From Methanosarcinales archaeon (GTDB lineage: Bacteria > Omnitrophota > Gorgyraeia > Duberdicusellales > 4484-171), in contig JAIWAR010000002.1 of assembly GCA_048634245.1 (NCBI GenBank), positions 5,418 to 69,417 on the forward strand: a stretch of DNA of 64,000 bases, in the 5' to 3' direction. Position 1 is the stretch's first letter; each line of letters starts with the position of its first letter. Shown piece by piece: positions 1-13,909 of the stretch. The translations under genes were made by a program, and so were the position numbers. Under the pieces are notes generated by a model, which did not search any database, was not told the DNA's origin, and worked only from the letters and a program-made list of their open reading frames with translations.

Positions 1-2412
1 CTATAAAACACTATCGAATTCAGCAATTACCATAAATTCACCCTCTTCTGAATTTGGAATACTAATGGGATCGTAATCGGGATTTAAAGACAAAAGAGTT
101 ATTTCTTCATGTTTCCACGATCCATCGTCAAATACCTTTTTTTTGCTTGTATATTTTTTTACAGTATATTTTCCACCTGTTTCGGGATCAGAGATACCAT
201 TATGCTGCACTAAAACAATTTTGTTTTGCCTAGTTCCTTCTACCCCCCATCGAAAAATGCAAAAACTATCATTGGGTATTAGTGGTTCCATAGAATGACC
301 GATCACCTTTGCCACAAACATTCGTCGGTTTAGTTTTTTGCCAATATTTGCCTTAGCCCATCCTTCTTCGTGACTACTCATACCTCGCCCAAAATTACCA
401 GCAGCTGCTTCTAGTGAATAGACTGGTAAATACTCAGTATATTTAAGATGCTCTTCAATATCTTGCTCGATCTTGTAAATTAATTGATCTTCTGCTGCGA
501 CTAAATCAGAAAGTTTAAGGGCTTTTCCTTCATCTATCGGCGTTCCTTCAATACGTGACTTAAAAAACCTCTCTATATCTTTATTCATAAAATAGACATA
601 ACATCCTTTCATCCCGCGGCTAAGTAACACTCTATAAGTATTTTTTATGAGATCAATAAAACCTTCTTTTGAACGCTTTACCACATTGTCAGATGATTTA
701 TGGGGGTTACCCACCCATTCTTGATTATCAAAATCATAAACTAAATCTTCGCCAAAAATAACTCCGACATAATCAAATTCAAATCCTTGCGCAGTATAAA
801 TACACCCCACCTGATTTATTCCATTTGGGTCATATGCCCATAATGAAGCCTTGGGAATTCCCGGAGCTAACCTTCGCGCTTCTGGCTTTGCATCCCAGGG
901 GCGTTTATAATCGCCGATAACAACATCATCTTTTAAAGTTCCATCTTCATTCGGCATAGACCAATCCCAACAAAATCCAGCAGTCACGCGTCCCGTGAAC
1001 CCACTTTTTACTTTTTCCCTTATTGCAGCTTCTAATTCAAAAGGAGATGGGAATATTCTAAAATCAAACTCTTCATGCTGGTCCCAAATAACATTGGCTG
1101 TTCGCTGTATACCGAGTGTATTATTTATCCAATTAACAAAAGCATCTGACCCATTACATCGAAATTGTGCTGCTAATTCATATTCGAACATCTTACAACC
1201 TTCATCATTAGCCCATTTTTTAATGTAGCTTACAGAACCTATTTCGTTAGGCCTTACAACCTGTTTATCATCTATAAGAAATACCGCTACTTTAGATGTA
1301 TGCAATAACTCTTCTATCTGAGAGAATTCTGATCTTTGTGCACGAGGGGTAAAACGGCTGTTGCTTGTTTTACGTATTCTATGTGCCTCATCGGCTATCA
1401 AAACATCTATGATGTTAGGTTCAGCTTGTGCGTAGCTATTAAAATATTTAAATTGCACAGATCCACGCGAGCCAATAATCTTACGGAGCGTTTCCGTAAA
1501 TGCTCTAGACCCTGTTGCATAATGTGCATTAAATCCTTTGAGCGATAAGTCCGCCATAAGATTAATAGCTATTACTGATTTCCCCGTACCTGGGCCACCC
1601 TTAATTATTAAAACTGTTTTTTGTTTGTCTCGAAATCCTCTTTTTGCGCAAGAAAGCACTTTATCGTAAACGATTAGCTGTTCATCAAGCAAGATATATT
1701 CACTTTTTCCTTTTATTATATTACCTACGTGACCCATTAATTTTTTACTTGGCCGGTATTTGCTTTCTTCAACTCTTTTAAGAACGCTTAGCCCCTCACC
1801 TCTTGACATTTTACTAGCTAAATAATCTGCTAACTTATCTACATCATCAGCCGTAAATAAAGGGTACTTAGATAATACGGCAGAAAATTTATCTGAAAAT
1901 ATAACATCTTGATTATAGTAATTATAATTATGAAGATAAGCGCAGGCCCTTAATTTTACAGGATTGTAATCAGTATTAAAGGTGGTATGGGTATCTTGCA
2001 GATACATTTGATATTGACCAACTTGCACTGCTGGATGAAGCACCTCTCTTTTAGCTCCTCCAACCCATGTCAAAACTTCATTATCTCCGGCTGCTTCCTC
2101 ACATTTATCCCATTGTTTAAGCTCTACTATAACAGCATTATCTTCCTTGGAGTCATCTTTGCCACAAATCATACAATCTAATCTTTTTGAAGTTAACGGT
2201 AATTGATACTCTAAAATAACACCATGATCGAATAAGTTTGCATATTGAAAAACTTGAGAAATTGATCTTAGTGAATTACGCCAAGAATTGACTTCTGCCG
2301 GGGCCGGGTTGTAGCGGAAATAATTGAAAAATGCAAGTTTTAGCTTTTCGGCAATTTGATTCTGAATGGTATCATCTATAAACTGCTGAGAGCTTCCTGA
2401 ATAAAGTCTCAT
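1..2412 (-). CDS. Three-module protein: N-terminal PD-(D/E)xK-like nuclease domain, DUF2075 / Schlafen-like SF1-type P-loop ATPase (Nhi-like nuclease-helicase architecture), and C-terminal LexA/UmuD-type S24 serine peptidase domain
   Basis: Walker A GGPGTGKSV and Walker B-like VLIADEAHR. N-terminal D..ExK (RLDCMICGKDD...VIVELKQW). The C-terminal 106 aa align to LexA: GHSMEP (Ser), GGKYTVKKY (Lys), LNPDYDPISI. An AAG candidate cleavage site lies 35 residues before the Ser. The stop codon is at positions 1-3, so the gene is complete. Confidence 0.75.
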   Translation of the reverse strand: MRLYSGSSQQFIDDTIQNQIAEKLKLAFFNYFRYNPAPAEVNSWRNSLRSISQVFQYANLFDHGVILEYQLPLTSKRLDCMICGKDDSKEDNAVIVELKQWDKCEEAAGDNEVLTWVGGAKREVLHPAVQVGQYQMYLQDTHTTFNTDYNPVKLRACAYLHNYNYYNQDVIFSDKFSAVLSKYPLFTADDVDKLADYLASKMSRGEGLSVLKRVEESKYRPSKKLMGHVGNIIKGKSEYILLDEQLIVYDKVLSCAKRGFRDKQKTVLIIKGGPGTGKSVIAINLMADLSLKGFNAHYATGSRAFTETLRKIIGSRGSVQFKYFNSYAQAEPNIIDVLIADEAHRIRKTSNSRFTPRAQRSEFSQIEELLHTSKVAVFLIDDKQVVRPNEIGSVSYIKKWANDEGCKMFEYELAAQFRCNGSDAFVNWINNTLGIQRTANVIWDQHEEFDFRIFPSPFELEAAIREKVKSGFTGRVTAGFCWDWSMPNEDGTLKDDVVIGDYKRPWDAKPEARRLAPGIPKASLWAYDPNGINQVGCIYTAQGFEFDYVGVIFGEDLVYDFDNQEWVGNPHKSSDNVVKRSKEGFIDLIKNTYRVLLSRGMKGCYVYFMNKDIERFFKSRIEGTPIDEGKALKLSDLVAAEDQLIYKIEQDIEEHLKYTEYLPVYSLEAAAGNFGRGMSSHEEGWAKANIGKKLNRRMFVAKVIGHSMEPLIPNDSFCIFRWGVEGTRQNKIVLVQHNGISDPETGGKYTVKKYTSKKKVFDDGSWKHEEITLLSLNPDYDPISIPNSEEGEFMVIAEFDSVL

Positions 2413-2756
2413 AATTTATTATACTTAGTATGCTTTCCTCTAGCCTTTTCTACAGGATATTTCTTTTCATTTTTTGCTAATTTTTTTTCCATAGCACTAA
2501 TTAAATCTATACTTAGATTATCAGCTAGCTCAAAAAGATATAAAGCAATATCAGCTATCTCATCTTTAATTTCATCATGATTCTGCCTTGCGTATTCCTC
2601 CACCTCTTCAATAGTTTTCCACTGAAAATGCTCTAACAACTCAGAAGCTTCAAGAATGATTGAGACAGCCATATTTTTAGGATCATGGAATTGCATCCAG
2701 TCCCGGTCATCTCGAAATTTTTTAATTCTTTCAGTTATATTTTCTACGTCACTCAT
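2409..2756 (-). CDS. MazG-like all-alpha nucleoside triphosphate pyrophosphohydrolase (COG1694 type)
   Basis: FRDDRDWMQFHDPKN...EASELLEHFQW...EIADIALYLFELADNLSIDL...KNEKKYPV matches the MazG/YpjD EExxE and DxxLY motifs. It overlaps the downstream gene by 4 bp (ATGA). Confidence 0.8.
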   Translation of the reverse strand: MSDVENITERIKKFRDDRDWMQFHDPKNMAVSIILEASELLEHFQWKTIEEVEEYARQNHDEIKDEIADIALYLFELADNLSIDLISAMEKKLAKNEKKYPVEKARGKHTKYNKL

Positions 2757-2868: not shown

Positions 2869-3069
2869 TTATAATTTTCTCCCCACTAACTTATCCAAAC
2901 TAACCCCAAACACATCTGAAAGTTTAATCAATGTCTTCAAGGTGGGATGTTTCGCTAACCCTTGTTCTATCTTGGTAATCGCATTAAAAGAAAGGCCTGC
3001 TTTCTCAGCAAGTTTTTGCTGAGACCATTCTTTTTGTTTGCGAAATTTCTTTACTCTTCCTGCTAACAT
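2869..3069 (-). CDS. XRE-family (Cro/CI-type) HTH transcriptional regulator
   Basis: QQKLAEKAGLSFNAITKIEQG is the typical XRE HTH; 66 aa. Confidence 0.8.
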   Translation of the reverse strand: MLAGRVKKFRKQKEWSQQKLAEKAGLSFNAITKIEQGLAKHPTLKTLIKLSDVFGVSLDKLVGRKL

Positions 3070-3595: not shown

Positions 3596-4300
3596 CTAAC
3601 TCACGCGGTCCCGTTCGAAAGAGCGGGATTTTCGCATTTTAGGGCCTTGATACCAGTGCCCAAAATTTACAAATTTAGTTAAAACCCCCCACAGTTCTTT
3701 TGCGACTTGGCCTCTCACTCCAAAAACATAAATATTTTTACCTTTTAGTTTTAACCGATTGAGGGGTTCCTTGAAGTCTGAATCACCAGAAAAAAGTAAA
3801 ACACCAGACACCCTATCCACCACATCTAACATATCGAGTGCGATTTCTACATCAAAATTACACTTTGGTTCTTCTATCACAACCTTTTGGCTTTGAAGAT
3901 ATTCAATTAGCTCGTCCAACTTAGAATGTGCATTGCCATCAAAGAGTTCAAGAGTCCCGGATTTAACGAATAATTTTCTAGTTATTTTTTTCTTAATCCA
4001 TTTCACAGGCTTATTAATTACAATTGCTCCTTTACTTCTTAATACTTTATGGAAATTTTCAGATTTTTTGAAATCGCGATAGTTTACCCCGTAATATATA
4101 CGGATTTCCTTTAATGCAGTTATTTTAAATAACTGCTTAATAACAAAATAGATTGAAAATTTCCATTTTAAGCTATCTTGCCAACCAAACATATTGCTTA
4201 AATCGAGATATGCAATAAGGCTGGTTTCCCTAAAAAACTCATAAGTCTTATTTCTTTCCATTATATATGTTTTTGAAATTCCGAAATTCCGGTGACACAA
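3596..4300 (-). CDS. NYN-domain (LabA-like) putative RNase
   Basis: VLLFSGDSDF motif and conserved upstream D residues of NYN/LabA. The start may be the internal MERNKTY at about 4261. Confidence 0.7.
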   Translation of the reverse strand: MCHRNFGISKTYIMERNKTYEFFRETSLIAYLDLSNMFGWQDSLKWKFSIYFVIKQLFKITALKEIRIYYGVNYRDFKKSENFHKVLRSKGAIVINKPVKWIKKKITRKLFVKSGTLELFDGNAHSKLDELIEYLQSQKVVIEEPKCNFDVEIALDMLDVVDRVSGVLLFSGDSDFKEPLNRLKLKGKNIYVFGVRGQVAKELWGVLTKFVNFGHWYQGPKMRKSRSFERDRVS

Positions 4301-4368
4301 TACTTAATTGTACAAATTCCGTGGAATTCAGTGAAAAACTACCGTCAGATATAATAAACTCCTTATTC

Positions 4369-5349
4369 CTATGAATTTAGTTCTTTCTCTAATCCCTCTA
4401 TCACACCCAAAAGCTCATCAAAATTCGGGTATTCACCAAATATCATCTGCTCCATGTCAGCGTAATCTTTCCTTAATGCACCTGTTAAAGATTCATTTGG
4501 CATTAAAGCAAAAGTGCCTGGTCTCGCAAGATCATCTCTTGCCCAAGAACTTGGAAAGAATTGCTTCTTAAATGTTACTACCTGTTCACAAAGAACCAAA
4601 TCAATAATAGCCGAATCTTTAATACCTTTTTTACACATCATCACAACATCATAGTAATGACGCGAATACCTATCTCTTGATTGTTTACCCGCTGAACGAT
4701 GATGTTCTTGATGCAATATCAGCACTTTTTCCCAAAATGTTCTCTCAGCCTTTATTGCATGTACACTTACCATAGGATCAGAAAACACACCTGGAAATTC
4801 TTCTGCCGCATACGGCTTTATATTATAGAAAGCATTTGGCTTCCATGCTGATCTAGGGCCTATTTCCAAAAAAATACGGTCCTGAATATATTTATCTGTA
4901 AAACTAGACGGATACTTAATAAATATTTTTGCGGTATCACCAGAGGTATTGATATCCAAGACACACAGGTCGCCAACAAGATCCTTAACTATCTGATAAA
5001 TCGTATCTTCAACAAATTTACACGACTTTTGTTTAAGTTCGGCATGCCAAGATTTCTTAGCTTTACCAGAAGTCCCTTCAGGAAGCTGACTCATCTGCAA
5101 AAGATTCCAATTCAGTACAAGATCAATGTCTTCTGAGAATCGCTCTATTACATTAAATACCTTTGAAAGGCTTGTCCCTCCCTTAAACATGATATTCTTA
5201 GAAAACATAGAATGTCTATACAGCTTCTGAAGGACCCAACATGCCCAGAAGTCCTTTTCTATAATTATTTCTCTTACCCCACGCTTTGCAGCACACTCGT
5301 GAAATATATCCGCACGCTGTTTAGGTGGCATCCTTGCAACTTTATTCAA
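4369..5349 (-). CDS. abiEii: AbiEii/AbiGii-family nucleotidyltransferase toxin (DUF1814)
   Basis: N-terminal IEKDFWACWVL signature; length about 320 aa. It overlaps the upstream AbiEi-like gene by 8 bp. Confidence 0.75.
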   Translation of the reverse strand: MNKVARMPPKQRADIFHECAAKRGVREIIIEKDFWACWVLQKLYRHSMFSKNIMFKGGTSLSKVFNVIERFSEDIDLVLNWNLLQMSQLPEGTSGKAKKSWHAELKQKSCKFVEDTIYQIVKDLVGDLCVLDINTSGDTAKIFIKYPSSFTDKYIQDRIFLEIGPRSAWKPNAFYNIKPYAAEEFPGVFSDPMVSVHAIKAERTFWEKVLILHQEHHRSAGKQSRDRYSRHYYDVVMMCKKGIKDSAIIDLVLCEQVVTFKKQFFPSSWARDDLARPGTFALMPNESLTGALRKDYADMEQMIFGEYPNFDELLGVIEGLEKELNS

Positions 5350-5953
5350 TCTTATCTCCTAGTATATACTTGATATTATCATATACACTTCCTGACATAC
5401 CCTTAAAGTCTTTAGATATATTGTTTAGCTCATCATCACTAAAATATGATTTCATTTTAAGCAAATCATCATTACTAATATCCCCCGGCAAGAGCCCCTT
5501 AATAGCCTGCACAAGCAGAGCTGTCTCAGGATACTTAACCGCCATATCTCTTTTAAGTTGATGCTTGAACACAAGTTTTGTTTTACCTATCTTATACTTG
5601 CGATGCGGACCATCTGAATAATAAATAACTCTGCTGGGGACCTGAGCAGAAATACCAAGTATATTTAAAGCAGTATCACTTGAAGGATGTATATTCCAGC
5701 CGCATTTACGCGCAATAGCATCAGCGACCTTTGATATAGCCGGACTAATATATTGTTTAAGGATATCGCTATAAGAAGGATAATCATAGATTCCTGTCAT
5801 AACCCTTCTGATATTACCCTTCTTGTAAAGACGCACTAAAGCCTGACGCACAGCATCTCGTGATGCGATATCCCTGAAATCCACTGCAGAGAAAGCCCAA
5901 GACTTCTTTTTTGAACAAATTTTCCTAAATATTTTATCTTCAATACTATACAT
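5342..5953 (-). CDS. abiEi: AbiEi-family type IV antitoxin / transcriptional autoregulator
   Basis: About 200 aa, immediately upstream of and overlapping AbiEii. Direct-repeat operator-like sites lie just upstream. Confidence 0.6.
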   Translation of the reverse strand: MYSIEDKIFRKICSKKKSWAFSAVDFRDIASRDAVRQALVRLYKKGNIRRVMTGIYDYPSYSDILKQYISPAISKVADAIARKCGWNIHPSSDTALNILGISAQVPSRVIYYSDGPHRKYKIGKTKLVFKHQLKRDMAVKYPETALLVQAIKGLLPGDISNDDLLKMKSYFSDDELNNISKDFKGMSGSVYDNIKYILGDKIE

Positions 5954-5969
5954 ATGCCATATTATACAC

Positions 5970-6016
5970 TTTTGTCACAGAAATTTCAACTTTTTTGTGA
6001 CATTTTGTCACAGAAA
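5970..6016. promoter_or_regulatory. Candidate AbiEi operator: TTTTGTCACAGAAA twice (5970-5983 and 6003-6016), plus a TTTTGTGACA variant between them
   Basis: Repeats read directly, 17-63 bp upstream of the abiEi start codon (5953). Confidence 0.45.
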
Positions 6017-6104
6017 GCAATAGACCTCCATGGATATTACCAAAGCTCAATTCACTGTAATATATAACAAAAACCTTTGTACAATCATGGATTTACGGTT
6101 GACA

Positions 6105-6194
6105 ATTCACAGGAAAAGTGGTATATTTTTTGCAAAAACCATAAAAACATTCAAAATTAACTAAAACAAAAAATATACCACTTTTCCTGTGAAT
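6105..6194. repeat. Perfect 27-bp inverted repeat (attcacaggaaaagtggtatatttttt / aaaaaatataccacttttcctgtgaat) around a 36-nt AT-rich loop
   Basis: Arms at 6105-6131 and 6168-6194 are exact reverse complements. It lies between the PLD-family gene stop (6239) and the abiEi upstream region. Confidence 0.9.
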
Positions 6195-6238
6195 ACAATT
6201 CTTTTTTAAATTTCTACCTATTATCAAATCTTCTCTAC

Positions 6239-7411
6239 TCAATCACCATACTCGCGTAAATCATTAAATGCAGCTTTGATAGTTGATACATTGACATTAA
6301 AACGTTTAGCAAGGGCAGATTTTGATATGGAATATAAGTCTTTTCCTTCATCTTTAAGCAGTGCCTCGATTATACGAAGAAATTTTAAGCGCATAGTCAA
6401 CGCGCTTTTGTTTGTTCTAATAATAGACCTGGTGGGTATACTGAATTGAGATTGCTTCGCTTCGCTCGCAATGACGATAGGCTTCAGTGCTACAACAGCA
6501 TCTCTTCCAAAAACAAACTTTACGTTAATAAGATGATAGCGATTTTGTAGTTTTTTTAAGGTTTTAATTACTTGCCGCCTCAAAGCGCTATATGTCCATG
6601 AATCAGGCATGCCTAAACTTAAAGCCATAGCTTCTAAACTTATTAAAAATTCCTGTTTGCCGGTAGTCTGACTATGAGCTAAAAGTAATAGATAAAGATC
6701 CATAGCGCGTTCACCAGAGCTGGTAACCATACGAGAAAGATATTTTTTATTCAAAAGAAACTCTTTGGGAACAGATAAGCTTTTAGGCAGATTTTCCATA
6801 TAGGCCGGAATATAATGTCTTTTATCACGCGGCGCAGAAGATATAAGAAGGTTTTTAAGGCGTGATAGTTTTACTTGGGCTAAGTCCGGAGAATCGATCA
6901 GCGTAGAAGATTCAAAATTATTCTTCAGCGCTGAAATAGACCAATTAGCGCTGCCTTCAACTACATATCGACTATCAACCACTATAAGTTTATCATGAAG
7001 CCTGCGATTAGAGGGTATAAAATGAATGACAACTCCGGTATTTTCTAATTTCTTAAAAATAGAGCTCTTGATAAAAGGGTTCTCGCCTTTGTCAGAATCT
7101 CTGAAGCGGGTATTAAGATATAGTGTAACTTTAACGCCTCTTTCTCTTGCTTCCAACAAATCGTTAAGCAAAAGCCTTATCGGATTCCTAGTCTTTGTTC
7201 CCAGACTTATACTATATATAGAAATAACTATGGAATTTTGCGCATTATCTAAAAGCTGAATTACAGCTTCTTCGTAACTACGATCAGATATATCTTTTAC
7301 TTTGGCAGAATGAAATGTTTCTTCAAAATCACTGGAGTAAACAGAAGCAGCTAGAATAAAAGTAAAAAAGCCGAGGCTAACCCATGATGAAAGGAATTTT
7401 CGTCTACACAT
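6239..7411 (-). CDS. Secreted phospholipase-D (HKD) family nuclease-like protein with a roughly 190-aa C-terminal HTH-like extension
   Basis: Signal peptide MCRRKFLSSWVSLGFFTFILAASVYS. A single HKD motif HDKLIVVDSRYVVEGSANWS. The C-terminal region has HTH-like segments (ISKSALAKRFNVNVSTIKAAFNDL). Confidence 0.7.
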   Translation of the reverse strand: MCRRKFLSSWVSLGFFTFILAASVYSSDFEETFHSAKVKDISDRSYEEAVIQLLDNAQNSIVISIYSISLGTKTRNPIRLLLNDLLEARERGVKVTLYLNTRFRDSDKGENPFIKSSIFKKLENTGVVIHFIPSNRRLHDKLIVVDSRYVVEGSANWSISALKNNFESSTLIDSPDLAQVKLSRLKNLLISSAPRDKRHYIPAYMENLPKSLSVPKEFLLNKKYLSRMVTSSGERAMDLYLLLLAHSQTTGKQEFLISLEAMALSLGMPDSWTYSALRRQVIKTLKKLQNRYHLINVKFVFGRDAVVALKPIVIASEAKQSQFSIPTRSIIRTNKSALTMRLKFLRIIEALLKDEGKDLYSISKSALAKRFNVNVSTIKAAFNDLREYGD

Positions 7412-7512: not shown

Positions 7513-8013
7513 TTATTCCAACTTTGTCCGCTTTGGTATATTACCATTTTTGAAATGCTTATCGAGCCAGCCATTTTTCACATTTTCTCTTGAATCAAAA
7601 TGCGAAACATAGGGTTTAATATCTAACAAAGGTGTACCATCTAATATATCAACCTCTGAAAACGTAATAATATTACTCTCTACTTTTTCCAATTTCACAA
7701 TAGAAAACCCAATATGATTCGGCCTCATCGGACTCCTAATTGCAAATATCCCGTGTGATTCATCTTCAAGGAAGGGTCTGCCGATAAGCTTCTCATCTTT
7801 AGATCTATCAAAATAATAGATTAAAATAATATGAGAAAATCCTTCTATATCTTTAAGGCCCTGCCGATACTCTGAAAATAGCTCAGCCTGGCCAGTAACG
7901 CCTTTTTCAAATCTACCTTGGATAGGTATACCCTTTGGTTCTTTATATGGCGTATGAATTATGCCTATTGGTTTCAATTTTATCTCTTTTTCCATATTAC
8001 ATCCAACATCCAA
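7513..8013 (-). CDS. tsaA: tRNA (adenine37-N6)-methyltransferase TsaA (YaeB/UPF0066 family)
   Basis: IGIIHTPYKEPKGIPIQG...AIRSPMRPNHIGFS...LDGTPLLDIKPY are conserved TsaA motifs. The start is probably MEKEIKL at 7995. Confidence 0.75.
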   Translation of the reverse strand: MDVGCNMEKEIKLKPIGIIHTPYKEPKGIPIQGRFEKGVTGQAELFSEYRQGLKDIEGFSHIILIYYFDRSKDEKLIGRPFLEDESHGIFAIRSPMRPNHIGFSIVKLEKVESNIITFSEVDILDGTPLLDIKPYVSHFDSRENVKNGWLDKHFKNGNIPKRTKLE

Positions 8014-12511: not shown

Positions 12512-13909
12512 TTATCTTTGCTTAATAGGAAGATATTGTTTATCAAAAGGCCCGGTATACATTGCCCTGGGGCGAAAAATGCGGTTATTCTCAAGATATT
12601 CCATCACCCGCGCAGTCCATCCTGCTACCCGGCTCACTGTAAACATAGGGGTAAAAAACTCAGTGGGGATACCAAGAGCATGGTAGGCAATACCTGAATA
12701 AAAATCAACATTAGGAAATATTTTCTTCTTTACGCCCAAGGTTGAGATAACCACCTCCTCCAAGCTCCGGGCAACCCTAAACAACGACAAAGATTCTTTA
12801 TTGTTTTCAACAAGATATTCAGCTAAAGGCGATAAAATGCGGGCCCGCGGATCATAGGCCTTATATACCCTATGCCCAAAACCCATAATTTTATCCTTCT
12901 TTTTTCGGGAGTTTTCATACCAGGATTTCACGTTTTTAATACTGCCTATTTCTTTTAGCATATGAATAACCCGTTCGTTAGCTCCGCCGTGAAGAGGCCC
13001 ATTAAGAGCGGCAATGCCTGAGCCCACAGAAAAATAAATATCGGATAAAGTAGAAGCAACCACCATTGCCGCAAAAGTACTTGCATTCATGCCATGGTCC
13101 GCATGCAAAATAAGCATTATATCCATAATGCGTTCTTCTTCCGGAGAAGGTTTTTTACCTGTTATCATATAAAGTAAATTAGCCGCATGGCCTAAAGCCG
13201 GATCAGGCTCAACAGGAGAATGCCCTTGATGGATTCGGGCAATAATTGCCGCGATTGAGGCGACACCGGCTATTAAGTGGTAGCAGGACATGTAACCCGC
13301 TGCTGTTCCTAAGCCTGCGGGTGATTTTGAACTTTTAATACCCCTCTTCCCCTTAAATTCATAAATAGCGCGCTCTTCTCCCCGGGGCGGTGTTTCCATA
13401 GGAATGGAATCTTCATCGGTACCGATTATATTTGCTTCGCTAAACCTGCTGTCATCTTTATCTGCATGGGTGAATTCCTGACGCATAAGATTTACGCCAA
13501 GCCTTAATGCTGCCATAGGGCTCATCTTTTCAACAGAAAAATTCTGCAGCAGCCCTAAGGTGCCGGAAACATCGCGACATTTTATAAGTTTACGATTAAA
13601 TGCCTTCAGCTGTGATGCCGTAGGAAGATTACCATGCAAAAGCAAATAACTAACTTCTTCATATGTAGAATTTGCGCATAAATCGAATATATCGTATCCG
13701 CGATAGATAAGCCATCCCTTAGCTCCATTCACATAGCCGATTTTACTCTCGCAGGCAATCGCACCTTCAAGCCCCGGGCCTACAATACATTCTACGGGCC
13801 AGTTAATAGGTTTGGTAAGAGCCGGCTCGGGTTCGGTGTTAGTTTCTCTCCGGGCTTTTTTTGCGGCATTAAGCACCAATTTTGTAATTTTTTTTGTATT
13901 TTCATTCAT
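12512..13909 (-). CDS. gltA: Citrate synthase
   Basis: GFGHRVYKAYDPRA and conserved His/Asp active-site context. Confidence 0.85.
   Translation of the reverse strand: MNENTKKITKLVLNAAKKARRETNTEPEPALTKPINWPVECIVGPGLEGAIACESKIGYVNGAKGWLIYRGYDIFDLCANSTYEEVSYLLLHGNLPTASQLKAFNRKLIKCRDVSGTLGLLQNFSVEKMSPMAALRLGVNLMRQEFTHADKDDSRFSEANIIGTDEDSIPMETPPRGEERAIYEFKGKRGIKSSKSPAGLGTAAGYMSCYHLIAGVASIAAIIARIHQGHSPVEPDPALGHAANLLYMITGKKPSPEEERIMDIMLILHADHGMNASTFAAMVVASTLSDIYFSVGSGIAALNGPLHGGANERVIHMLKEIGSIKNVKSWYENSRKKKDKIMGFGHRVYKAYDPRARILSPLAEYLVENNKESLSLFRVARSLEEVVISTLGVKKKIFPNVDFYSGIAYHALGIPTEFFTPMFTVSRVAGWTARVMEYLENNRIFRPRAMYTGPFDKQYLPIKQR

Follow-up and report, generated by a model that had tools for sequence, protein, structure and literature searches.

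The 803-residue protein encoded by the first 2,412 nucleotides of the window (the whole stretch of 64,000 nucleotides that was analyzed) ends in a genuine S24 domain. Its last ~147 residues are apparently intact, with the cleavage site, Ser, and Lys in LexA positions. The self-cleaving S24 switch is textbook for repressors (LexA and cI) and for UmuD; here, it is built into a putative DNA-cutting enzyme itself, and it recurs in this form across many restriction and defense families. We regard it as close to an even call that the tail is a functional S24 autoprotease, held on a flexible linker, whose self-cleavage would be coupled to RecA* (the RecA-ssDNA filament) and would down-regulate a defense enzyme working with a MazG-like partner.

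Layout of the protein and identity of its S24 domain

The gene and its domains were delimited as follows.

1..2412, minus strand: whole gene, nuclease-like domain plus DUF2075/SLFN-type helicase plus S24, 803 aa (open reading frame list and sequence; stop codon 3..1)
1723..2412, minus strand: N-terminal nuclease-like domain, residues 1-230 (invariant D79, E97-x-K99)
589..1620, minus strand: DUF2075/Schlafen group-3 type SF1 helicase domain, residues 265-608 (Pfam, invariant motifs)
445..546, minus strand: variable linker from core to S24, residues 623-656 (21% mean identity, many gaps)
4..444, minus strand: S24 (LexA/UmuD/cI-type) domain with the cleavage-site region, residues 657-803 (Pfam, profile, model, hhalign)

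Full-length homologues of the protein form more than 100 clusters, with identities of 62-81%. Pfam matched it to SLFN-g3_helicase (DUF2075, PF09848; E 2.8e-88), with Walker A and B intact, and to Peptidase_S24 (PF00717; residues 664-796, E 9.9e-9, 35.4 bits, above the gathering score of 23.3), while NCBIfam gave only sub-threshold P-loop matches. The helicase Walker A motif GGPGTGKS (nt 1576-1599) and the DEAH motif (residues 341-344) are both invariant in homologues. Structural matches of the full-length model were SLFN11, SLFN14, RecD2, Dda, and Dna2, and PADLOC gave weak matches of the helicase part to Nhi, AbiO, and PDC-S41. The N-terminal domain, modeled with pLDDT 80-93, had no match in Pfam, and taken by itself it gave neither a profile nor a structural match. 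D79, E97, and K99 are invariant in sets of 108 and 60 homologues, and this motif, together with the Nhi/Nhi-like layout, leads us to infer a PD-(D/E)xK nuclease. No HTH, the DNA-binding domain of the LexA/cI type, was detected in the N-terminal 620 residues, which are nuclease-like plus SF1 helicase, indicating that the protein is not a LexA/cI-type repressor. The first-pass annotation, made from the letters of the sequence, had described an S24 sensor fused directly to a putative effector, and this description holds, in that the cargo is an enzyme and a DNA-binding domain is absent.

In the full-length model (pTM 0.44), the linker was disordered and inter-domain packing was without confidence. 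Mean identity among the 108 homologues was 57% for the S24 domain versus 21% for the linker, whose residues 623-645 had pLDDT below 50. From this low identity and low pLDDT, the linker is probably a flexible tether between the enzyme core and S24. The protein is a nuclease-like domain and a DUF2075/Schlafen-type helicase in a Nhi-like layout, followed by a variable, low-confidence linker and S24.

A search of PDB sequences with a single sequence, either the C-terminal 174 aa or the whole protein, returned nothing useful, so a profile of the S24 domain and 50 relatives was used instead. The profile matched only LexA, lambda cI, and UmuD. The alignment was colinear, placing AaG on LexA A84-G85, GhSMeP on S119, and TVKkY on K156, and hhalign against E. 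coli LexA (probability 90.8%, E 1.2e-6) gave the same residue equivalences. Both bear out the earlier claim that the last ~146 aa are colinear with the LexA C-terminal domain. Structure prediction of the tail for comparison with that domain had been suggested as a check; AlphaFold2 produced a confident model of the last 179 aa (pLDDT 88.4, pTM 0.81), and its best 20 Foldseek matches in the PDB were all S24 folds, namely the C-terminal domains of LexA, cI, or UmuD′ (E down to 1.9e-5). The TM score on the target was 0.65-0.74 for stand-alone C-terminal-domain chains and 0.39-0.51 for full-length entries.

The closest stand-alone relatives of the tail are HTH_3+S24 repressor-like proteins, with 47-49% identity. 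A phage origin was considered and dropped, as the IMG/VR viral contigs contained no close relative and 50,697 phage records gave no match to this S24 subtype. Given the latter result, the subtype appears to be distinct from classical prophage repressors.

Predicted cleavage site, catalytic dyad, and RecA-contact positions

The catalytic features were placed by alignment to LexA.

397..408, minus strand: predicted cleavage site A669-A670-A671-G672, aligned to LexA V82-A83-A84-G85; scissile bond between codons 400-402 and 397-399
283..300, minus strand: GHSMEP motif with the predicted nucleophile Ser707 (codon 292-294), aligned to LexA S119; invariant
151..168, minus strand: YTVKKY motif with the predicted general base Lys752 (codon 157-159), aligned to LexA K156; invariant

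An intact LexA/UmuD-like module of site and Ser/Lys had been proposed from the outset, and the Pfam match above threshold, the presence of both residues in 108 of 108 full-length homologues, and the LexA-type predicted fold all agree with it. The placement of Ser and Lys as in S24 peptidases was likewise confirmed, because S707 and K752 align with LexA S119 and K156 in both the profile alignment and hhalign. Some positions required correction. The Ala-Ala-Gly motif is present as noted, but it spans nt 397-405 rather than 398-406; the Ser codon at 292-294 was right, but the residue is S707 and not S706; and the scissile Gly is G672 and not G671, the residue numbers having been one too low. The spacing from site to Ser stood, with 35 residues from G672 to S707 compared to 34 in LexA. 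Thus, the A671-G672 bond lies 35-36 residues N-terminal of S707, and the S24 family range is about 34-38. The stretch from S707 to K752, 45 residues versus 37 in LexA, is longer by an insertion of 8 residues, the DPETGG loop.

Ser and Lys were also invariant in all 36 S24+ genome loci and in a diverse set of 79 fusion proteins that carry other N-termini. Among the 108 homologues, the P1 position (A671) was Ala in 89 and Cys in 19, and the P1′ position (G672) was Gly in 94, Thr in 11, and Ser in 3. Ala is the P1 residue of LexA and cI, and Cys is that of UmuD. Across 150 representatives of the S24 subtype, AA[A/C]G predominated (about two thirds), and the remainder had V/S variants, Thr/Ser at P1′, or no site that could be found. 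Judged from these alignments, the conservation of site and dyad is far beyond chance, and the invariant Ser/Lys with P1 Ala/Cys as in LexA/UmuD suggests selection on catalysis beyond the fold alone. Thr or Ser occupies the Gly position in about 10-13% of relatives, and Asn or Asp occupies it in one clade, with Ser and Lys kept; at one locus (L074), the cleavage site is absent altogether and the S24 fold is kept. Since the LexA G85D substitution blocks cleavage (PDB 1jhf title), some of the relatives with altered P1′ may not cut at that bond or may use the domain differently.

In LexA, F111, L113, and V153 form a hydrophobic pocket for RecA F203, with the acidic patch D150-E152 adjacent (PMC9926225). 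At the F111 position, F699 is invariant; at the L113 position, A701 varies among Ala, Ser, and Val; and at the V153 position of this RecA L2-loop pocket, Y749 is Tyr in 95 and Phe in 13 of the 108 homologues, preceded by Lys, Ser, or Arg. D742 was found in 106 of the 108 DUF2075-family homologues and was invariant in the 79 fusion proteins, and position 744 (E744) is always acidic, both lying just before the Lys strand. However, D742 and E744 sit in the 8-residue insertion, out of register with LexA D150-E152, which directly precede V153. By this comparison, the RecA-contact features of LexA/UmuD/cI appear to be matched only in part.

Distribution of the tail and its gene neighborhood

Orthologues that are 77-82% identical in the core end at residue ~622 without an S24 tail, and they are widespread in bacteria and archaea. 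In a neighbor-joining tree of the core, S24+ and S24-less clades interleave. A split S24 gene beside S24-less orthologues was considered, and tblastn detected none in 45 such loci, indicating that these forms are truly without S24. The domain is thus an accessory, modular part of the enzyme, and the high identity of the S24-less orthologues indicates a core that can dispense with S24 as an autoinhibitor. A plasmid collection gave one partial match, a frameshifted or split copy in Halomonas.

The tail was found at 0 of 20 archaeal versus 34 of 59 bacterial orthologue loci (Fisher p = 2e-6, not corrected for phylogeny). Archaea use RadA and lack a LexA system, so the absence of S24 from the 20 archaeal loci fits a link to RecA. 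Alternatively, because S24 domains are rare in archaea generally, this absence may reflect the availability of the domain instead of RecA dependence.

The same S24 subtype also forms the C-terminal tail of Type ISP, Type IIG (Eco57I/MmeI-type), Type III-like, and ResIII/SNF2 enzymes, and it was further observed on Mrr, AlwI, LlaJI, Type I S-subunit-like, and UvrD-like proteins and other helicases. As a generic appendage, it thus recurs in about 20 enzyme families that are unrelated to one another. The search behind this distribution yielded 3108 clusters. The S24-bearing restriction enzymes are constitutively active on unmodified DNA and need no activation. The occurrence of the tail on many unrelated restriction enzymes suggests an undescribed tie from DNA-cutting defense to the DNA-damage signal. 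Nothing in the literature searched, most subscription journals lying outside its coverage, described DUF2075+S24, DUF2075+MazG, or restriction enzymes fused to S24. It is possible, if on balance doubtful, that the subtype serves as a self-cleaving plug-in that senses RecA* on many unrelated restriction and defense enzymes, in bacteria only, which would give a direct post-translational SOS link for general restriction alleviation or, alternatively, activation. If true, enzyme classes with no known mechanism of this kind would gain one, and protein engineering would gain a portable tag for degradation or release in response to damage.

Two genes lie upstream of the 803-aa gene.

2409..2756, minus strand: MazG-like nucleotide pyrophosphohydrolase gene, with a 4-nt overlap with the start of the 803-aa gene (Pfam MazG-like, E 1.9e-19)
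2869..3069, minus strand: small HTH_3 (XRE/controller-protein-like) gene, an occasional accessory (Pfam HTH_3, E 1.2e-17)

A MazG-like gene stands directly upstream on the same strand at 59 of 80 loci, with both S24+ and S24-less forms and in both bacteria and archaea; PADLOC has no model for this partner. The surroundings form a defense island with AbiEi/AbiEii, NYN, PLD, and E1/E2 genes. Neither recA nor lexA was present within the 64,000-nt window, which says nothing on the host genome.

A proposed off-switch, its alternatives, and known systems

In the proposed mechanism, the S24 domain would dock in the groove of RecA*, and the cleavage-site loop would be held in the active site. Ser707, activated by Lys752, would cut Ala671-Gly672 within the same chain. 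The enzyme, now residues 1-671, would thereby lose the S24 domain, probably a dimerization domain as well, and would end in a new C-terminus, ...Ser-Leu-Glu-Ala-Ala-Ala. Through lost dimerization, an exposed Ala-Ala C-terminal degron (as LexA(1-84) offers to ClpXP), or both, the enzyme would be turned down when host DNA is damaged or under repair, that is, by a built-in "restriction alleviation". Neher and colleagues are said to have found in 2003 that ClpXP degrades LexA fragments after self-cleavage. The Ala-Ala-Ala end is not independent evidence for a degron, because the S24 active site itself requires such a sequence. We infer that the tail cuts itself, that RecA* is the trigger, and that the outcome is off rather than on, the last being favored because the same S24 subtype sits on constitutively active enzymes and S24-less orthologues are tolerated.

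The opposite direction, which the first-pass annotation had raised in the form of cleavage activating the effector on phage signals, is less likely. Here, S24 would keep the nuclease-helicase inactive until RecA* or a phage-specific signal caused self-cleavage and unleashed the effector. The same intact self-cleavage module would serve this reading as well, the gene lies in a defense island (AbiE, NYN, PLD, E1/E2), many defense systems sense phage replication or recombination proteins, and escape from staphylococcal Nhi has been traced to replication proteins of the phage. Nevertheless, we consider activation unlikely. The S24-less cores of 77-82% identity, common in bacteria and archaea, show that the core is tolerated without an inhibitor, and the same tail is carried by classical restriction enzymes that need no activation. 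Furthermore, its presence on about 20 unrelated families is hard to square with specific autoinhibitory contacts, and the full-length model gave no confident packing between domains, although S24 may still dock on the core.

Self-cleavage may also be real with a trigger other than RecA*. The cue could be an antirepressor-like factor or a protein of the phage, pH, stress, or the binding of the enzyme to DNA, or cleavage could run as a slow intrinsic timer of how long the enzyme lasts. The out-of-register acidic patch and the lack of a close relative of this subtype in the phage records would agree with such a trigger, and in IrvR the superfamily has a member described as RecA-independent in its cleavage (PMC7101444). 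However, the pocket positions F699 and Y749 are conserved, the tail is missing from all 20 archaeal orthologue loci, and the nearest stand-alone relatives are repressor-like, which together make this distinctly unlikely.

It is very unlikely that S24 is mainly a non-cutting part, either a dimerization module or an adaptor docking the enzyme on RecA filaments at recombination or replication intermediates. The phage P1 Ref nuclease, which acts on RecA-bound DNA, is a parallel for the adaptor. The C-terminal domains of LexA, UmuD, and cI do dimerize and bind the RecA filament groove (PMC9926225), and the fold is kept in the relatives without Gly at the site and in L074. In contrast, every relative examined has Ser707 and Lys752, even where the site is altered, and about 87% of relatives retain the Ala/Cys-Gly site; neither would be needed for binding alone. 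Finally, it is highly improbable that the protease spares its own chain and cuts a different protein in trans, be it the MazG-like partner or one from a phage: UmuD does cleave intermolecularly within its dimer (PMC9926225) and the MazG-like partner is conserved, but the chain has its own conserved LexA-like site at a LexA-like distance from Ser, and the partner is as conserved with S24-less forms and is thus not an S24-specific substrate.

The proposed RecA*-coupled off-switch was then compared with known systems. It shares with LexA, lambda cI, and UmuD (MEROPS S24, PF00717) the fold, the Ser-Lys dyad, the Ala/Cys-Gly site at the same positions and spacing, the order of cargo, site, and C-terminal S24, and, in part, the residues of the RecA L2-loop pocket. 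The cargo differs, being here an enzyme of ~620 aa compared to a DNA-binding domain in LexA and cI and a 24-residue arm in UmuD, and the insertion before the Lys strand with its displaced acidic patch is also a difference. Among phage repressors, this tail has no close relative.

Type I restriction alleviation, in which ClpXP degrades HsdR, is a precedent and follows the logic proposed here, with a protease turning off a DNA-translocating nuclease when host DNA is in danger (PMC4231737, PMC11109961). EcoKI, however, is signaled by prolonged translocation on host DNA and has no known degron, whereas here the proposed signal is RecA*, the first cut would be made by a built-in domain, and the link to ClpXP is conjectural. 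Outside Type I enzymes, where it works via ClpXP, such control is not known, and why alleviation is unseen in other enzyme classes has been asked explicitly (PMC4231737). Were RecA* to drive the cleavage here, this would reveal how restriction-type enzymes are kept off the cell's own DNA during repair.

Nhi of Staphylococcus and Nhi-like single-protein systems similarly have an N-terminal nuclease-like domain followed by a DUF2075/SLFN-type helicase. However, the PADLOC Nhi model matched the 803-aa protein only partially (E 1.8e-12, residues 236-426), and the conserved MazG-like partner differs from the single-gene Nhi organization; neither this partner nor an S24 tail is mentioned in the Nhi and Nhi-like papers examined. 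Human SLFN11 resembles the core, SLFN11 and SLFN14 being its best structural matches in line with the Pfam SLFN-g3_helicase assignment, and it responds to single-stranded DNA (PMC13056530). Unlike in SLFN11, no Schlafen RNase domain was detected here, and the S24 tail is without a eukaryotic counterpart.

The likeness to CapP-type regulators suggested earlier proved loose. In CapH/CapP and ImmA/IrrE-type pairs, a metallopeptidase cleaves a separate repressor, raising transcription. Although a protease step ties DNA damage or infection to defense in these pairs as well, CapP is not an S24 self-cleaver; here, an S24 serine autoprotease would act within the effector polypeptide, and no CapP-like gene is present at the locus. 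The small HTH_3 neighbor does match capH (E 8e-10) in PADLOC, along with HTH_VI and RM control-protein models. Its interpretation as a detached LexA N-domain was dropped as a general feature, since such a gene precedes the pair at just three closely related loci, L007, L010, and L004.

Identity and conservation of the C-terminal domain

The 803-aa protein was analyzed for the LexA-like C-terminal domain claimed by the first-pass annotation, and the following features were located.

1..2412, minus strand: gene of the 803-aa protein, with its stop codon at 3..1; the window start falls inside the 3' end of the gene
Residues 265-608: Schlafen group-3/DUF2075 helicase domain (Pfam E 2.8e-88)
Residues 664-796: Peptidase_S24 (Pfam E 9.9e-9, 35.4 bits vs gathering score 23.3)
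408..397, minus strand: predicted cleavage site A669-A670-A671-G672
294..292, minus strand: Ser S707
159..157, minus strand: Lys K752

Single-sequence searches against PDB sequences gave no match. A profile made by aligning the last 179 aa with 50 relatives matched only LexA, lambda cI and UmuD among PDB sequences, and in the colinear alignments the AAG site corresponded to A84-G85 of LexA, GHSMEP to S119 and TVKK to K156. Identical equivalences were obtained with hhalign against E. coli LexA (probability 90.8%, E 1.2e-6). Structure prediction of the region, as the annotation had proposed, gave a confident AlphaFold2 model of the 179 aa (pLDDT 88.4, pTM 0.81), and in a Foldseek comparison with PDB structures the top 20 matches of this model were all C-terminal domains of LexA, cI or UmuD'; the next matches were signal peptidases, the sister family. 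The above-threshold Pfam match, the profile, hhalign and the modeled fold all agree with the claim, indicating that the domain is a member of the S24 family by profile, catalytic dyad, site and fold. The proposed Gly-to-Ser spacing of 35 residues was also right, whereas the residue numbers S706 and G671 were each off by one (S707 and G672). A LexA/cI-type repressor identity for the whole protein was ruled out, since a DNA-binding domain is absent.

The same architecture was observed in >100 clusters of full-length homologues (62-81% identity), mostly from uncultured Omnitrophota, Thermodesulfobacteriota, Bacillota, Elusimicrobia, Nitrospirota and others. Across 108 full-length sequences, S707 and K752 were invariant; P1 (A671) was Ala in 89 and Cys in 19, exactly the residues of LexA/cI and UmuD, and at P1' (G672) 94 sequences had Gly, 11 Thr and 3 Ser. 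Compared with the window protein, the homologues averaged 74% identity in the nuclease-like region, 79% in the helicase, 57% in S24 and 21% in linker residues 623-656, where pLDDT was <50 in the full-length model. As judged from these identities, the invariant Ser/Lys and the low linker pLDDT, the S24 domain is under purifying selection, catalytic residues included, on a predicted flexible tether to the core.

Roughly a tenth of the relatives carry Thr or Ser at P1' and retain Ser and Lys. Among the related genome loci, the site reads AVAT in L011, L018, L019 and L020, AAAS in L006, AAAN in L041 and L042, and AVAD in L045, and no recognisable site was found in L074. Asn/Asp at P1' was seen in one clade, and the dyad was kept there and in L074. 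Because G85D blocks LexA cleavage, as the title of PDB entry 1jhf states, members with variant sites may, by analogy, not cleave at all or cleave in another way. This leaves two readings: P1' is less constrained than in LexA, or the domain is put to a different use in some members.

The enzyme core and its neighbourhood

Walker A (GGPGTGKS) and DEAH motifs of the core were invariant, and its fold resembled the SLFN11, SLFN14, RecD2, Dda and Dna2 helicases. The N-terminal 230 residues had no match in Pfam; they were confidently folded in the model and contained an invariant D79 ... E97-x-K99 motif. PADLOC gave weak, partial matches of the protein to PDC-S41, AbiO and Nhi. The PD-(D/E)xK + DUF2075 layout of Nhi and 'Nhi-like' proteins fits the core, which by analogy would work like them. 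However, the core lies outside the PADLOC Nhi family by sequence and also has a conserved MazG-like partner.

2409..2756, minus strand: MazG-like pyrophosphohydrolase gene, with a 4-nt overlap with the start codon of the 803-aa gene
L001 7657-8004 and L003 5630-5992: further MazG-like copies
3596..7411, minus strand: NYN-domain protein; AbiEii and DUF6088/AbiEi-like partner; PLDc_2+HTH_36 protein
L002 6636-10913, beyond the window start: two E2-CBASS-like genes, one ThiF/E1 gene and three unknown genes

In 59 of 80 related loci the MazG-like gene immediately preceded the nuclease-helicase gene on the same strand, with S24 present or absent alike, and the two genes were paired in bacteria and archaea and translationally coupled. 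PADLOC contained no model for this partner, and the pair may be an undescribed two-gene defence system. The surrounding ~7 kb form a defence island: besides the NYN, AbiEii/AbiEi-like and PLD-family genes listed above, it holds a small HTH_3 controller-like gene; no cyclase was found among the called genes of the island and the region beyond the window start. Housekeeping genes start at about 7.5 kb. Citrate synthase genes lie near the cassette both here (12512..13909, minus strand) and in a 77%-identical Omnitrophota locus (L001 14275-15570); this shared neighbour suggests a syntenic chromosomal position of the island in related genomes.

Distribution of the S24 tail

Orthologues 77-82% identical in the core stop at residue ~622, without S24, and no separate S24 gene was found near them. 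In the 79 genome loci whose host was named, the tail was present in 0/20 archaeal vs 34/59 bacterial loci (Fisher p = 2e-6, uncorrected for phylogeny), a difference that could arise because S24 domains are generally rare in archaea. When the cores were placed in a neighbour-joining tree, S24-bearing members formed five or more clades with S24-less clades between them, and S24 identity was roughly in step with core identity. From both observations we read the pattern as an old fusion with repeated loss, repeated gain of the tail being a possible alternative.

When 1.84 billion representative proteins were searched with a profile, this S24 subtype turned up in 3108 clusters at 50% identity, of which 682 had E <= 1e-30. 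The top 150 matches were 144 to 1969 aa long, and in 144 of these matches the domain ended <=25 residues from the C-terminus. Most carried an AA[A/C]G site, about three quarters a canonical small-small-Ala/Cys-Gly site, and nearly all the GxSME and [YF][TS][VIL]K motifs. N-terminal Pfam partners of the longer matches (n=79) were mutually unrelated: ResIII/SNF2 (15), SLFN-type helicase (13), Type ISP specificity domain (11), DEAD helicases (7), and further Eco57I/MmeI methyltransferase modules, MrfA Zn-binding domain, AlwI, LlaJI, Mrr, Type I S-subunit domains, HIT, PLD and UvrD. Other tail-bearing architectures were DEAD+MZB+REase, HIT+helicase and GIY-YIG+SLFN-helicase; HTH fusions were a small minority (3/81 in a separate count).

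S24-tailed examples: P0258, P0261, P0284, P0316, P0297, P0211, P0268, P0252 and others

The S24 subtype is thus a widespread module on restriction-type enzymes. The annotation had described a sensor fused directly to an effector; the direct fusion stands, but it is one instance of this module and not peculiar to the present protein. The literature searched contained no account of DUF2075+S24, DUF2075+MazG or S24-fused restriction enzymes, and the Nhi, Nhi-like and bacterial Schlafen papers did not mention S24 or LexA. We rate the finding as a known switch on a new class of cargo, which connects, in a testable way, to the old question of what restrains non-Type I restriction enzymes during DNA repair.

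A family member also occurs in a cultured Halomonas (sp. PA16-9, megaplasmid NZ_CP040452.1; L089 3971-6441), a possible experimental entry point. Its 686-aa nuclease-helicase ORF and 159-aa S24 ORF (IAAG, GESMN, FTVK; region unannotated in the record) occupy separate reading frames and overlap within the linker; a frameshift, an error in sequencing and a real split of the gene would each explain this. In Omnitrophota locus L006, a second partial S24-like stretch (7710-7943) follows ~300 nt downstream of a complete tail; it shares 37% identity with the last 78 residues and may be a remnant of duplication or module exchange. The stand-alone member P0176 (212 aa) comes third, after an HNH_2 nuclease and a 23S_rRNA_IVP-like protein, in a cassette that is conserved between two contigs (L087 3323-5639 and L088 166-2482) and adjoins an SNF2/NOV_C helicase. 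The closest HTH_3+S24 relative, P0165 of Bacteriovoracia (L085 4703-6078; 47% identical in the S24 part), has on one side a small divergent HTH_3 gene, in a cro-like layout, and on the other a MazG-family gene in convergent orientation, so that MazG again stands beside this S24 type.

Favoured direction of the proposed switch and a possible RecA link

Activation of the enzyme by cleavage, one of the outcomes that the annotation had proposed, is less favoured: near-identical cores occur without the tail, which argues that it is not a required inhibitor. Down-regulation is favoured instead, because the S24 partners are enzymes constitutively active on unmodified DNA, because a tail that is generic and joined by a disordered linker fits a mechanism without specific cargo contact, and because ClpXP precedents exist for the LexA fragment and Type I restriction. 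Cleavage might act through loss of S24-mediated dimerisation or by exposing a new ...Ala-Ala-Ala C-terminus. LexA(1-84), ending Val-Ala-Ala, was reportedly degraded by ClpXP after self-cleavage in work by Neher et al. in 2003. ClpXP also alleviates Type I restriction after DNA damage (PMC4231737, PMC11109961). However, the Ala-rich end does not count as independent support for a degron, since the S24 active site itself dictates it.

[quoted passage not shown] RecA-independent cleavage also occurs in the superfamily (PMC7101444). Here, the pocket positions are F699 (invariant; F111), A701 (L113) and Y749 (Tyr/Phe; V153). D742 was conserved in 106/108 DUF2075-family homologues and invariant in 79 fusion proteins with other N-termini, and the E744 position was always acidic; both residues sit in an 8-residue insertion, out of register with the LexA acidic patch. 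With the pocket partly matched and the acidic residues out of register, RecA* dependence is a plausible hypothesis.
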